This document shows positions 282-4,059 of a stretch of DNA of 18,444 nucleotides, piece by piece (position 1 is the stretch's first letter; each line of letters starts with the position of its first letter). Under the pieces are notes generated by a model. That model was given only the letters and a program-made list of their open reading frames with translations, was not told where the DNA came from and ran no database searches. Made by a program: the position numbers and the translations under genes. Location of the stretch: NCBI GenBank assembly GCA_964508365.1, contig CAZDTP010000066.1, positions 1-18,444 on the forward strand, written 5' to 3'. Source of the DNA: an uncultured archaeon (GTDB taxonomy: Archaea > Asgardarchaeota > Lokiarchaeia > Sigyniarchaeales > SOKP01).

Positions 282-746
282 ATGTCTCGATCCTATAAAG
301 ATTTTCTAGACAAATACAAAATCGACGACTTTAAAACGAATCTAAAGCTAAGCGGAAGCACAAAAATAGATTTTTATAACGATATTGATAAATTATTGAA
401 AACGATGAGTACAATATTTGATAAACTCGCAATGATTTCACCTATGAGAGGAGCGCAAGTACTATTGGCTGTTGCAAAATTAACAGGTCCAGATAATGTC
501 GTAAACAAGACGGATATTATGAGATGTTTAAATATTGATAGATTAGAGAAGATCCTATCAGCAATTGATTACTTAGAGAATGCGAAGTATATTACGATTG
601 AGAAAAAAACAGAAAAGTTCCATATTATAAAGTTAAACGAAGAAGATAACCCAGATTTAACAATCTTTAGGGAAATCGTTCAAAAATACTGGAAATCACC
701 TCAAGAAGAAATTGAACAGACAAAAAAATGGAGGGATGAAAAATGA
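282..746 (+). CDS. Hypothetical winged helix-turn-helix protein (154 aa), probable DNA-binding protein
   Basis: The segment GAQVLLAVAKL..VNKTDIMRCLNIDRLEKILSAIDYLENAKYITIEKKTEKFHIIKL has a helix-helix-helix-beta-hairpin pattern typical of wHTH domains. Its stop overlaps the next start (ATGA, 743-746). Confidence 0.6.
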   Translation: MSRSYKDFLDKYKIDDFKTNLKLSGSTKIDFYNDIDKLLKTMSTIFDKLAMISPMRGAQVLLAVAKLTGPDNVVNKTDIMRCLNIDRLEKILSAIDYLENAKYITIEKKTEKFHIIKLNEEDNPDLTIFREIVQKYWKSPQEEIEQTKKWRDEK

Positions 747-1744
747 GAAATTCGCTGAAAACAATAACAGAATTAAATTTTGAAAACGAAAAAGATCTAA
801 AAGAGTCAGCTCAAATAATAAAATCAGAGTATTATAAGAAAGCCCTTAAGTCAAGTTTATATATTGCTATAGTTTTAATAGTTGCGTTTAGTTATCTCGT
901 GTTTGGTTATTTACCTTACTTGGATAACACTTCTTTCCCATATTTTCTCGTCACTGAAAGTTCCGCTCTTGTAAGTAGTGGATTTTCTTTAGACTTAACT
1001 TTGGGATGGAGTTTCTTTAGTACTTCAACCTTCTTGATAATTTATTTCATACGATTAATCCATATCAAATTTACGCCCTCGTTGATTAGGTTTATTGAGA
1101 AAGAGACTAAATATGCAGGTTTTGAATTTAAAAGAATATTTGATAGTATAGGATTATTTGTAATCTTGAATGCTATGTCTATCTCTTTACTTTTTTACCT
1201 AGAGAGCAATCTTATCAGATTTGATAATAGTCCTTGGAGCAATGTATTTAAACACTTTCTTTTAATTTACTTATTAACTAGTCTAATCATACCTATTGTA
1301 TGGGTTTTTAGAAACGATAAATTCGTTATCAAATTAAAGAATAATGTTTTTGTTCAATGCGATTTGTACTATAATATCAAGAAGAATAAGAACTACGACT
1401 CAAATTTAATTGGTATTATTTTAACATCAAACCGATTATGCTCGAAATTTGATAGATCTGGAAAATTTATATATTCAAAAATATCAGAAGGTAGATGGTT
1501 AGTAAGGAATGAATCTTCAGCGATATCGCCATACCTCCATTTTGAAGAATATTCTGTTCCGTTCAATTTCCAAAAACAGTTTTTAAATATCGTATTAGCC
1601 TTAAATGAGTGGGAAAACAATTACGCGTCAAATCTCGATTCCCTTAACTATTATTTCTCAAAAAATCTTTATGGCTATAATTACAGAACTAAAAAACCCA
1701 ATGATAAAAACGAATTAATTTACTTTAAATTTCTAAACATTTAA
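743..1744 (+). CDS. Hypothetical membrane protein (333 aa), about 4 TM helices plus a C-terminal soluble domain of about 140 aa
   Basis: Long ORF with four hydrophobic stretches (LYIAIVLIVAFSYLVFGYL, LGWSFFSTSTFLIIYFI, IGLFVILNAMSISLLFYL, FLLIYLLTSLIIPIVWVF). ATGA overlap with the upstream gene. Confidence 0.75.
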   Translation: MRNSLKTITELNFENEKDLKESAQIIKSEYYKKALKSSLYIAIVLIVAFSYLVFGYLPYLDNTSFPYFLVTESSALVSSGFSLDLTLGWSFFSTSTFLIIYFIRLIHIKFTPSLIRFIEKETKYAGFEFKRIFDSIGLFVILNAMSISLLFYLESNLIRFDNSPWSNVFKHFLLIYLLTSLIIPIVWVFRNDKFVIKLKNNVFVQCDLYYNIKKNKNYDSNLIGIILTSNRLCSKFDRSGKFIYSKISEGRWLVRNESSAISPYLHFEEYSVPFNFQKQFLNIVLALNEWENNYASNLDSLNYYFSKNLYGYNYRTKKPNDKNELIYFKFLNI

Positions 1745-1832: not shown

Positions 1833-2483
1833 TTAAATAAAATATTTTTGCTGAAGCATAATATATTCGTTATGGTCAGTAAATTCCTCTTCGACAAGGT
1901 TAGAAACAATATCGTACAACTGTCGAAATAGTTCTTCAGGGAATGCTTTGTGCTCAAAAACTATATCGCTTACTAATTCTTCTGTTAATATTTGGGAATT
2001 GATCGATTTGTCATACAGTAAGAATTTCATCATAGCAGCGTCTATTTTCGATTTTACAATTTTCTTTATGATTTCTAAACTTAAATCTCGCTCTGGATCA
2101 ATAAAGTATGGGAAATTCATATCATCTAAAATTTTAACATATCCAAAACGAGAAGTTATTTTGTCAACGCAATATTCTAGCGAGCTAATTTCTAAACTAA
2201 ACTTTTTACAGAAATCTTTTTTACTTTCGTGAGCAGGAAACGCAAAGGGATGCCTTTTTACAATATAATACGCAGCAATGAAAAACTTGTAAAGATTATG
2301 CGGAATTTTACTATTAACTCTCAAATACCTATATACTAACGAAACAGTATCTAAAACAAAATCTTTATCTATGTCAAATTGAGTTAAAAAATCTTCTCCA
2401 TCTTTAATTAGATCGATTGTGATCCGATCTTTAGTATTTAAAACTTCGAGTTCAGGGGAATATAATTCTAACATTTCACACAC
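1833..2483 (-). CDS. Hypothetical protein with a predicted single TFB/TFIIB cyclin-fold repeat (GTG start at 2483 or ATG at 2474)
   Basis: Clean 216-aa ORF. Residues about 19-116 can be aligned by eye to an archaeal TFB core repeat as I recall it (IAAYYIVKR vs AACVYAACR). No N-terminal Zn ribbon. The CDS is likely; the fold call is inference. Confidence 0.65.
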   Translation of the reverse strand: MCEMLELYSPELEVLNTKDRITIDLIKDGEDFLTQFDIDKDFVLDTVSLVYRYLRVNSKIPHNLYKFFIAAYYIVKRHPFAFPAHESKKDFCKKFSLEISSLEYCVDKITSRFGYVKILDDMNFPYFIDPERDLSLEIIKKIVKSKIDAAMMKFLLYDKSINSQILTEELVSDIVFEHKAFPEELFRQLYDIVSNLVEEEFTDHNEYIMLQQKYFI

Positions 2484-2558
2484 GCAACCTTAACTTTTAT
2501 GTTTTTTTCAAAGAAATATCGATATACCACTTTGATAATATATGAATAACATTAATAT

Positions 2559-2617
2559 TATATAAATGTGATGCAGTGCAGTTGCAGATCATGTGCTGGA
2601 AAGCAATTATTTAAATA
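2559..2617. promoter_or_regulatory. Divergent promoter region: TATA-like boxes on both strands flanking a TGCAG-repeat element
   Basis: TTTATATA on the minus strand (2566-2559). TTTAAATA on the plus strand (2610-2617), preceded by purine-rich GGAAAGCAA. TGCAG occurs at 2572, 2577 and 2583 between them. Confidence 0.45.
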
Positions 2618-2674
2618 GTACTTTTTTTTATTTTAATTTAGTTAAAATAATTTTGTCGAAATTAGTCGTAAAAA

Positions 2675-3121
2675 ATGTCATCTACTCCTAATAAAGAATT
2701 GGAAAAAGAAAGGAGAAAACCAAAGTTACCAAGAACTACAGTTAGTCTTGATAAATTTGACGACTCAATTATCGAAAAATTAGTAGGGTATGAAGGTCAA
2801 AATAAATCAGAAGTAATAAGAAGTATAGTTAAAAAATGGATTGGGGAAAACGCTGATACGATTCAGAGCGTCTATGGAATAATTTTCGGAGATGTAAGAA
2901 GAGAAATAAATCTCATTGATGATAAAGAAGAATTAGAAGAAAAGATTGATAAATTACCTCAATTTTTCAAGCGGATCAATAAAATCGAGATAGATCGTTT
3001 AGCTGGACAGTTGGATATTAACTCCTCTGTCTTAATCAATTTAATTCTAGAAAAAGGAGATAAATTAGAAGAAAAAGGATTAAATCTTCTTATTGATGGC
3101 GTTTATATATTAAAAAGCTAG
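2675..3121 (+). CDS. Ribbon-helix-helix (CopG/NikR-like) protein with a C-terminal winged-helix/PCI-like domain (148 aa)
   Basis: RTTVSLDKFDDSIIEKLVGYEGQNKSEVIRSIVKKWI fits the RHH pattern (beta strand with alternating hydrophobics, helix, G-x-x-K/R-S-E-x-I-R). The C-terminal INKIEIDRLAGQLDINSSVLINLIL...LIDGVYI resembles the PCI-type winged helix. Confidence 0.7.
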   Translation: MSSTPNKELEKERRKPKLPRTTVSLDKFDDSIIEKLVGYEGQNKSEVIRSIVKKWIGENADTIQSVYGIIFGDVRREINLIDDKEELEEKIDKLPQFFKRINKIEIDRLAGQLDINSSVLINLILEKGDKLEEKGLNLLIDGVYILKS

Positions 3122-3145: not shown

Positions 3146-3322
3146 ATGATAAAAATTAAAGAATTTATTGAGAATCCCGAAAATAAGAAAAAATTATTTG
3201 ATATATATTCTGGTGAAGAAACTATACGATTTAATAACCGACATCCTACGTATAAATCTTTAATGAAAATCGAATTTGAAGAAGTTCTTCGAAAATATCA
3301 TAAATTATTTTTAATTGAATGA
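3146..3322 (+). CDS. Small hypothetical protein (58 aa), not in the ORF track
   Basis: ATG at 3146 to TGA at 3320-3322: MIKIKEFIENPENKKKLFDIYSGEETIRFNNRHPTYKSLMKIEFEEVLRKYHKLFLIE. It fills the gap between two co-oriented genes and has protein-like composition. Confidence 0.5.
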   Translation: MIKIKEFIENPENKKKLFDIYSGEETIRFNNRHPTYKSLMKIEFEEVLRKYHKLFLIE

Positions 3323-3339: not shown

Positions 3340-3564
3340 GTGTTTACGATGGCCATTGAGAAAGTTAGAGAAGCAATTCGGCTAAGATTAGAAGAATTAC
3401 ACGAAGTAGAGATAGAATTTCAAGATATTTTGTCTCAAATCGTAATTCCATTCTCAGAAATCTTTACATCATCAAGATCTTCTAAATTAATTTCAAAAAA
3501 TAACGATATACTCTTTAGTAAATGGGAAAAGAAATATAAAGAAATACTGCTGAAGGAATTGTAA
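3340..3564 (+). CDS. Small helical hypothetical protein (74 aa; ATG at 3349 is the more likely start)
   Basis: ORF track. Amphipathic E/K/L/I-rich composition. Followed by a T-rich tract. Confidence 0.55.
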   Translation: MFTMAIEKVREAIRLRLEELHEVEIEFQDILSQIVIPFSEIFTSSRSSKLISKNNDILFSKWEKKYKEILLKEL

Positions 3565-3675: not shown

Positions 3676-4059
3676 TTGAAACCTTTGGCAGAAGAAGAAG
3701 AAGAAGAAGAAGAAGATGGGTTTGCATTAGGTCCGGAGGAATTAAACATATTCTACGAGGTCCTTTTTAGAAGAATTATGGATATAATGGAAAATCCTAA
3801 TGTTAATGTTAATCCTTTCGAGGATATGGTAAAAATTTTAAGCCGGTTAAGCGAAATATTTAGTTTCAAAAGCATGATAACAATCATTCCTGAATTAATA
3901 GGTTATGCTATAAAGTACGGTATGATGGTAGAAAAAGCTTACGATGAAGAAGTAGCAAACTTAGAAGAAGACGAACAGGGTTTTGGTCCAGAAGAGGAAA
4001 AAGAAAAGAAAAGATCGGTAATTAAGAAAGATATAGACAAGCTTAACATGTTTTTATGA
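3676..4059 (+). CDS. Acidic hypothetical protein (127 aa; TTG start at 3676 or 3685)
   Basis: N-terminal poly-Glu, helical hydrophobic core and a second acidic patch. Followed by a poly-T tract. Confidence 0.7.
   Translation: MKPLAEEEEEEEEDGFALGPEELNIFYEVLFRRIMDIMENPNVNVNPFEDMVKILSRLSEIFSFKSMITIIPELIGYAIKYGMMVEKAYDEEVANLEEDEQGFGPEEEKEKKRSVIKKDIDKLNMFL
3691..3714 (+). repeat. (GAA)8 trinucleotide microsatellite encoding Glu8
   Basis: Read directly from the sequence. Confidence 0.9.

Follow-up and report, generated by a model that had tools for sequence, protein, structure and literature searches.

A predicted TFIIB/cyclin-type cyclin box in an acidic 213-residue protein of Asgard archaea

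The gene for the protein described here, protein T, lies on the reverse strand of the window (the whole 18,444-nucleotide stretch of archaeal DNA that was analysed) at positions 1833–2474 (−), stop codon included, and encodes 213 amino acids. Its limits were taken from the list of open reading frames and the translation. The listed frame, 1833–2483 (−), is present and its translation contains the residues quoted in the earlier note letter for letter. The gene is real, and only the GTG start of the listed frame at 2483 was replaced: more than 100 homologues are exactly 213 residues long and begin with MLELY or MIEL, so translation must begin at the ATG at 2474, which lies three codons downstream of this GTG. 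With a cut-off of E ≤ 0.01, 467 homologues of T were found, most with 78–92% identity. T and its orthologue from the same genus are 86% identical, compared with 32% for the RHH gene next to it and 61–89% for the other neighbours. The gene is under strong constraint and is among the best conserved of its neighbourhood.

A gene for an RHH (CopG-type) regulator is located divergently from T at 2675–3121 (+) and was assigned by a match to Pfam RHH_1 above the cut-off (E = 3.8 × 10−5). Neighbourhoods were compared using 39 T loci from across the phylum; in the taxonomic family of the window the RHH gene is divergent from T in ten of ten loci, covering seven genera. The intergenic region shared by the two genes (2475–2674) was delineated using an alignment of seven orthologous spacers and inverted repeats. 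It contains two conserved A/T-rich TATA-like boxes, one at 2555–2568 facing T and one at about 2609–2617 facing the RHH gene, and between them a TGCA-rich stretch (2569–2604), which in the orthologous spacers takes the form of palindromes or of direct repeats. The spacer sequences suggest a candidate common operator with promoters for both genes. The word GATGCA was also considered as an enriched operator element, which was not supported (five matches in the window, 5.1 expected).

The named homologues of T are all annotated as 'hypothetical protein' and come from Lokiarchaeota/Promethearchaeota or Hermodarchaeota metagenome-assembled genomes (MAGs). Scans of T against Pfam and NCBIfam gave nothing significant. 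A PDB search with the single sequence returned noise only (Nsp15, HicB), and in the ESM Atlas only the cluster of T itself scored above 0.9. The pI of T is 5.0 and those of the family are mostly 5–6.3, with medians of 7.1 for the N-terminal and 5.4 for the C-terminal domain.

A model of T was calculated with AlphaFold2 from a 29-sequence alignment. The mean pLDDT was 88.5 and the pTM 0.81, with all five models at 86.8 or above. The N-terminal domain (residues ~10–128; 2091–2447, −), delimited from this model, the VIA-align superpositions and the profile matches, is composed in the model of helices 7–31, 37–53, 61–73, 85–91 and 96–110 followed by a β-hairpin. The top Foldseek matches to the model comprised only structures of TFIIB, TFB, Brf and cyclins (E = 4 × 10−3 and weaker). 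These matches were realigned using VIA-align, in which residues ~10 to 117/129 of T were superposed. The Z scores were 10.8 for human TFIIB repeat 1 (r.m.s.d. of 3.3 Å over 105 residues), 10.6 for yeast Ccl1, 10.4 for Brf2, 10.2 for cyclin A and 9.6–10.1 for Pyrococcus TFB. A structure search independent of Foldseek against 48,161 representative chains agreed, the first 30 rows being all cyclin-fold proteins (ORC6 among them with a Z of 7.7, and Rb just below these rows with 7.0–7.1). The five-helix cyclin-box fold is thus present in the model, as its matches to TFIIB, Ccl1 and cyclin A indicate, and the N-terminal half of T is modelled as a single cyclin box of the TFIIB/cyclin type. The Z scores for TFIIB and the cyclins are tied, so that structure alone does not distinguish between the two for T.

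Sequence comparisons were carried out at the profile level. The profile of the T family searched against all PDB sequences matched TFIIB, TFB and cyclin B1; with 49 sequences in the profile the E values were 0.0056–0.017 for TFIIB, 0.044 for cyclin B1 and 0.056–0.06 for Pyrococcus TFB. The remaining matches were one marginal entry with an E value of about 2 and a designed helical repeat protein, which was rejected as spurious since its score sums repeated partial matches. When the N-terminal half was compared by hhalign with the TFBs of its own genome, repeat 2 was matched in register with an E of 4.9 × 10−5 and a probability of 68%, and repeat 1, also in register, with an E of 1.4 × 10−3 over 101 columns. 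T and TFB have a common signature around helix 3, consisting of AAxYI..R, a loop and then P-[R/N]-..-[E/K]-[I/F]. Against the PDB the sequence similarity between T and TFB is borderline (E = 0.006–0.06). The nearly gap-free alignment with a TFB repeat that had been made by eye from the sequence was upheld by the PDB profile search, by the profile–profile comparison and by superposition of the AlphaFold2 model. The insertion of about three residues noted in it measures two or three residues in the HMM alignment and falls in the loop between helices 3 and 4, and the proposal of a single cyclin box is borne out by the Z of 10.8 to TFIIB repeat 1. The AlphaFold and Foldseek check recommended in the earlier note likewise gave a predicted five-helix cyclin fold.

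By column conservation, the most conserved motif of the family is this helix 3–4 loop, R74-H-P-x-[S/A]-x-P80-[N/H] (2232–2255, −), in which R74, P76 and P80 are conserved in 94, 92 and 90% of the 49 aligned sequences, respectively. In the HMM alignment the R74–P80 loop corresponds to the 'CR....PRT' segment of TFIIB with the insertion of two or three residues. The β-hairpin after helix 5, D117...P122-Y-F-x-D126-P (2094–2138, −; DSSP strands 113–116 and 122–125), is conserved at D117 (98%), P122 (86%) and D126 (82%), and in the alignments it is an addition absent from the TFIIB repeats. L110 is conserved in 96%; the protein of the window has F110 here.

The C-terminal domain (residues 129–213; 1836–2090, −) is composed in the AlphaFold2 model of helices 131–154, 160–174, 180–200 and 202–211, with a conserved P179. 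Among the 48,161 chains its matches by fold were generic helical bundles only, with Z scores of 7.3 or less; the DP2 winged helix is one of them (Z = 6.8) and does not stand out. Folded alone, the domain reached a pLDDT of 68.8 and gave no Foldseek match; the lower confidence of the isolated domain is consistent with a single unit in which it packs against the cyclin box. The possibility of a second, degenerate cyclin repeat was considered and dropped (hhalign against the N-terminal half, E = 0.026 over 11 columns), as was a relationship to TFB (E = 0.35), a comparison that served as an internal negative control for the match of the N-terminal half. With hhalign negative and no fold match found, the view that the C-terminal half is unrelated to the cyclin box stands.

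Several parts of a TFB are missing from T. The Zn ribbon (PF08271, with two CxxC pairs) is absent: T contains two Cys residues and no CxxC, and has no Pfam match. There is no space for a B-reader or B-linker, as only ~10 residues, disordered in the model, precede helix 1. The earlier note had asserted the lack of both the ribbon and the reader, and a cyclin box that begins at about residue 10, the two Cys residues and the negative Pfam scan agree with it. A second cyclin repeat is also lacking (the C-terminal half against TFB giving the E of 0.35 above), and the pI of 5.0 is far from the basic values of the TFB cores of the same genome (9.7–10.1). PF00382 was not matched by T and was reached at E = 0.1 by one of 29 family members; a genome-wide search with PF00382 at E ≤ 1 found nine TFB loci, the T locus not being among them. 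T is not a TFB general transcription factor. Since the ribbon, reader and linker are missing, it cannot recruit RNA polymerase, and with one repeat only and an acidic character it is unlikely to bind promoter DNA. Cyclin_N (PF00134) was not matched by T either, three of 29 family members matching it at E ≥ 0.014, below the gathering score, and no kinase gene was seen near T in the 39 neighbourhoods. The two-box pocket of Rb is not found in T, which has a single box and matches Rb/p107 only with Z scores of 6.7–7.1. T lacks the tested defining features of TFBs and of the cyclin and Rb families as curated and belongs to the fold superfamily only. It represents a new family with a new architecture, in which a cyclin box is followed by a hairpin and a helical domain without a known relative.

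The distribution of the family was determined by several searches. Among 1.84 billion cluster representatives, searched exhaustively, only 41 clusters were found, about 20 of which are full-length proteins of roughly 200 residues with 20–50% identity. The survey of homologues across Asgard genomes that had been called for was made with a profile derived from these clusters and gave T in 179 of 300 genomes sampled across the phylum (E ≤ 1 × 10−12), nearly always as one copy in an open frame of 200–260 residues. T is near-universal in some families (60/68, 72/76, 15/19, 11/11, 6/6, 5/5 and 4/4), and in others the profile search found none (0/28, 0/21, 0/11, 0/7 and 0/6). The carriers, named according to MAG labels of which some are clearly wrong ('Bathyarchaeia', 'Deferrimicrobium'), are Lokiarchaeota/Promethearchaeota, Helarchaeales, Thorarchaeota, Jordarchaeales, Freyarchaeia, Odinarchaeum yellowstonii LCB_4 (OdinLCB4_005340), an 'Asgardarchaeia' MAG and some Heimdallarchaeota-labelled MAGs. 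The taxa of the T homologues agree with the attribution of the host genome to the Asgard archaea. At E ≤ 1 × 10−3, T was not found in a sister family of the same order that includes Promethearchaeum syntrophicum MK-D1 and Ca. Harpocratesius repetitus; absence from a genome here means that T was not found with the profile used. The family is Asgard-wide yet dispensable in some lineages.

Outside the taxonomic family of the window the gene context is different. In 19 of 29 loci from the other lineages T directly follows a co-directional gene, c1, and in one further locus c1 is nearby. The product of c1 is conserved and acidic, combines a coiled coil with an α/β domain and belongs to no known family; proteins that resemble it occur widely in Thaumarchaeota and Bathyarchaeota. 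Beside c1–T a third gene, c2, encodes a DUF1922 Zn ribbon with a C-terminal winged helix, and the surroundings often include c3, which encodes a wHTH-like protein of about 130 residues. Further neighbours are genes for a ferredoxin and a DUF211 protein, and the L22-S3-L29-S17-L14-L24 ribosomal operon; in one lineage c1–T–c2–c3 run into the L22-S3-L29 operon with genes overlapping or separated by 6 bp gaps. In Heimdall-labelled genomes T is situated between the gene of a 580-residue Ras-family GTPase and truA. A c1-like gene is present in genomes of the MK-D1 family in which T was not found, and the genome of the window carries it on a separate contig, where it has another partner gene at its side; the link between T and c1 is not obligate. 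The idea that c2 and T form a split TFB was not supported (against the ribbon of TFIIB, that of c2 reaches no better than E = 0.04–0.07, and c2 has a winged helix in place of a linker).

The earlier description of T as a stand-alone protein holds for T itself and does not hold for the T module, which is also embedded in hundreds of proteins of wHTH–wHTH–X–TPR design. In the genus of the window the complete two-domain module occurs inside proteins of 440–1015 residues, with two to nine matches per genome. In a 637-residue protein of the same genome two wHTH domains precede the T module (residues 187–373; hhalign probability 95%, E = 1.8 × 10−8), which is followed by TPR repeats, and a 988-residue protein of this genome has the same wHTH–wHTH–T–TPR design. 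A region search yielded 663 such proteins, annotated only as TPR or wHTH, in none of which was a TFIIB or TFIIB-ribbon domain found. An alignment search for longer fused forms gave none, which is weak evidence, as the genome and region searches did find fusions. The wHTH domains of the fused paralogues were also compared with c3, on the Rosetta-stone idea that the two correspond, and this was not supported (hhalign E = 0.12).

A TFB cyclin repeat is the most likely ancestor of T. The reading that we favour, and hold with about as much belief as doubt, is that T works as a co-regulator or adaptor, docking on DNA-binding proteins without itself binding DNA, under the control of the RHH regulator in Lokiarchaeia-type genomes. 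It is drawn from the cyclin box, the absence of the TFB parts named above, the acidity, the conservation and the persistent tie, through neighbourhood and fusion, to small DNA-binding proteins. One TFB-type cyclin box with its hairpin would pack against the family-specific four-helix domain, and the cyclin box would serve as a protein-docking surface, on which partners would most likely be bound at the RHP..P loop and the D..PYF.DP hairpin. T may act in trans with the neighbouring RHH, wHTH or Zn-ribbon–winged-helix proteins, and in the paralogues the module may act in cis, behind two wHTH domains and ahead of the TPR repeats. In Lokiarchaeia-type genomes the adjacent RHH regulator probably controls T via the shared divergent promoter. 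Against the co-regulator reading, the gene context is not uniform across lineages, and the adjacency to the ribosomal operon in several of them could equally point to translation or ribosome biogenesis.

The latter observation leads to an alternative in which T is a subunit of a housekeeping complex with c1 (perhaps also c2 or c3) in translation or ribosome biogenesis and not in transcription. The direct, co-directional position of c1 upstream of T in 19 of 29 non-Loki loci, the continuity of c1–T–c2–c3 with the L22-S3-L29 operon in one lineage and the wide occurrence of c1-like proteins in Thaumarchaeota and Bathyarchaeota speak for such a complex; nevertheless c1 without T and T without an adjacent c1 both occur, T resembles no RNA-binding or ribosome-binding domain and c2 and c3 look like DNA-binding proteins, and we regard this alternative as rather unlikely. 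The same degree of doubt applies to a role as a TFB decoy or TBP antagonist, in which T would use its TFB-like cyclin box to occupy the TFB-binding face of TBP or of TBP–DNA and, being unable to recruit RNA polymerase, would damp or re-programme initiation. The best structural and sequence matches of T are to TFIIB repeat 1, which is the repeat that contacts TBP. The genome itself, with nine TFB loci and two or three TBP paralogues, leaves scope for competition, and in Sulfolobus an N-terminally truncated TFB2 is dominant negative (bioRxiv 10.64898/2026.09.06.749720). A decoy of this type, however, is difficult to reconcile with the absence from T of the second repeat and of the BRE-reading HTH, with the acidity of T against a pI of about 10 for TFB cores and with the location of its most conserved residues in the family-specific loop and hairpin, which are not common to TFB. 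Moreover, there are entire Asgard families that keep TBP and TFB and in which T was not found, and fusions of the module with wHTH and TPR would be needless for a simple decoy.

Two further alternatives arise from the fold. The structural ties with cyclins A, B and C and Ccl1 (Z = 8.9–10.6) could mean that T activates a protein kinase or another enzyme in the manner of a cyclin, or serves as its targeting subunit; cyclin B1 was the only natural sequence match besides TFIIB/TFB below an E of 1, and there are the three of 29 family members that touch Cyclin_N at E ≥ 0.014. With kinase genes absent from all 39 neighbourhoods, Cyclin_N below threshold and a sequence that leans to TFIIB, this role is considered very unlikely. 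Least credible is a DNA-binding winged-helix regulator with helices 4–5 and the hairpin as HTH and wing: the H3–H4–H5–hairpin topology does resemble a wHTH, and a Zur wHTH, the best match of this kind, aligns with a Z of 6.2, but this is far weaker than the Z of 10.8 for the cyclin box, the helix that would have to recognise DNA has few basic residues (consensus SSLEWY..I...LG) and T is acidic overall.

Cyclins, Rb and TFIIB have one common fold, and TFB is widely held to be ancestral. The cyclin fold is common to TFB2 and Rb (PMC7617429), and the 2026 preprint on Sulfolobus TFB2 states that resolving the evolution of the cyclin fold requires an analysis of such proteins in Asgard archaea (bioRxiv 10.64898/2026.09.06.749720). 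Asgard MAGs have been stated to contain 'cyclin-like' genes (bioRxiv 10.1101/2021.04.02.438162); the statement is unspecific and probably refers to TFBs. T bears on the origin of cyclin-like regulators as a concrete candidate for a TFB-like cyclin box that came free of the parts for polymerase recruitment and DNA binding and acquired a new domain, and hundreds of wHTH–TPR regulators have taken up its module as well. That T is a surviving archaeal offshoot between TFB and the eukaryotic non-DNA-binding cyclin-fold regulators, a free cyclin box that would control gene expression by docking on winged-helix or RHH factors by an Rb–E2F-like logic or on an enzyme, is a reading to which we attach little probability; if it is true, the 'TFB to cyclin/Rb' transition could be tested directly in Asgard archaea. 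Should the partners of T be transcription factors or enzymes, T would show the domain of a general factor turned into a pure regulatory adaptor. Even otherwise, it defines a new domain family that merits a name and provides an annotation for several hundred 'hypothetical' and 'TPR' proteins.

In its way of working we infer T to be most like cyclins and Rb, which are protein-docking modules, and in sequence it is like a TFB repeat. With the TFB/TFIIB core it has in common the order of the five helices and, at the profile level, a similarity that reaches both TFB repeats. It differs from TFB/TFIIB in having one repeat instead of two, no ribbon, reader or linker, an acidic and not a strongly basic character, an extra hairpin and an unrelated C-terminal four-helix domain, and PF00382 is blind to it. 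The fold of the cyclins (including Ccl1/cyclin H and cyclin C) is the same as that of T, with equal structural scores (Z = 10.0–10.6), and both are proteins without a sign of a DNA-binding role. Unlike cyclins, T has no second box, no significant Cyclin_N match and no neighbouring kinase, and it is closer in sequence to TFIIB. The likeness to the Rb pocket proteins is one of logic only, in that T, too, would be a non-DNA-binding cyclin fold tied to winged-helix or RHH proteins: the tie of T is by fusion or gene neighbourhood, whereas Rb docks on the winged-helix factors E2F/DP. The structural match to Rb is weak (Z = 6.7–7.1), a single box is compared with an A/B pocket, T offers no LxCxE cleft to examine and there is no sequence similarity. 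The Sulfolobus proteins TFB2 and TFB3 are regulators that derive from TFB in a particular lineage and modulate the main TFB without taking its place, and TFB3 and the artificial TFB2ΔN illustrate that partial TFBs can be regulatory. T is far more divergent than these paralogues and is confined to Asgard archaea; compared with TFB3, which is without the core domain, it keeps the opposite part, a cyclin box without the Zn ribbon.

The gene for T, the 213-aa protein with a cyclin box and a C-terminal helical domain, is separated from the divergent CopG-type RHH regulator gene by a spacer at window 2475-2674. Two TATA-like boxes (2555-2568 and ~2609-2617) are kept in this spacer, with a TGCA-rich segment between them. 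The segment is a candidate RHH operator, because in the orthologous spacers it takes the form of GATGCA/TGCATC palindromes or direct repeats. Downstream of the RHH gene lie three small plus-strand ORFs of 58 aa (window 3146-3322), 74 aa (3340-3564) and 127 aa with an acidic N-terminus (3676-4059), whose order is kept in a same-genus genome at 27-83% identity; no significant Pfam family was found in any of them. On the other side of T, genes for a 154-aa protein (window 282-746, plus strand) and a 333-aa multi-pass membrane protein of no known family (743-1744, plus strand) overlap by 4 bp. The pair is conserved beside T in a same-genus genome (82 and 61% identity, respectively).

The entire T module was also found inside two larger paralogues encoded in the window's own genome (G000), of 637 aa (C56:14604-16517, equivalent to L002:598-2511, minus strand) and 988 aa (C41, L023:939-3905, minus strand). 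In both, two N-terminal wHTH domains precede the module and TPR repeats follow it at the C-terminus. A region search returned 663 proteins of this wHTH-wHTH-T module-TPR design, annotated as TPR or wHTH only; their middle domain is a family without a name. The same 4.07-Mb genome has a large set of basal-factor paralogues. TFIIB repeats are present at nine loci (contigs C25, C16, C49, C38, C60, C20, C21, C22 and C23), seven being complete two-repeat genes (~300 aa) and two being cut by contig ends, and TBP is represented by two full genes and a third partial match (contigs C7, C3 and C14).

In Thor, Jord, Frey and other genomes, T belongs to a conserved cluster of unknowns (L025:3528-6609, L033:4842-7119 and 17 more loci) adjoining the L22-S3-L29 ribosomal operon. 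The cluster comprises c3 (~130 aa, wHTH-like), c2 (a DUF1922 Zn ribbon with a winged helix at its C-terminus), a small ferredoxin, c1 (a coiled coil and an alpha/beta domain, with no family), T and DUF211. Heimdall-labelled genomes carry a distinct conserved run (L055:607-4460; also L031, L053, L054, L056 and L057). In it, a ~155-aa unknown separates T from a ~580-aa protein whose N-terminal part is a Ras-family GTPase domain, and T is followed by the tRNA pseudouridine synthase TruA. The 300-genome profile search gave several matches to T, from genomes of Frey/Jord type and others (G077, G086, G108, G309, G095, G119 and G124), that were flagged for one internal in-frame TGA, TAA or TAG. At least some of these flags probably reflect run-through at the gene end, since the annotated 200-aa T protein of G077 is intact.

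G000 itself carries a c1-like gene, after which come genes for a 271-aa unknown, which is conserved, and a GTPase-like protein of 211 aa (whole locus C22:7871-13445, equivalent to L052:4872-10445). The locus adjoins genes that we take to encode ScpB, ScpA and SMC, a putative assignment made by reading the sequences. Look-alikes of c1 are abundant in Thaumarchaeota and Bathyarchaeota.
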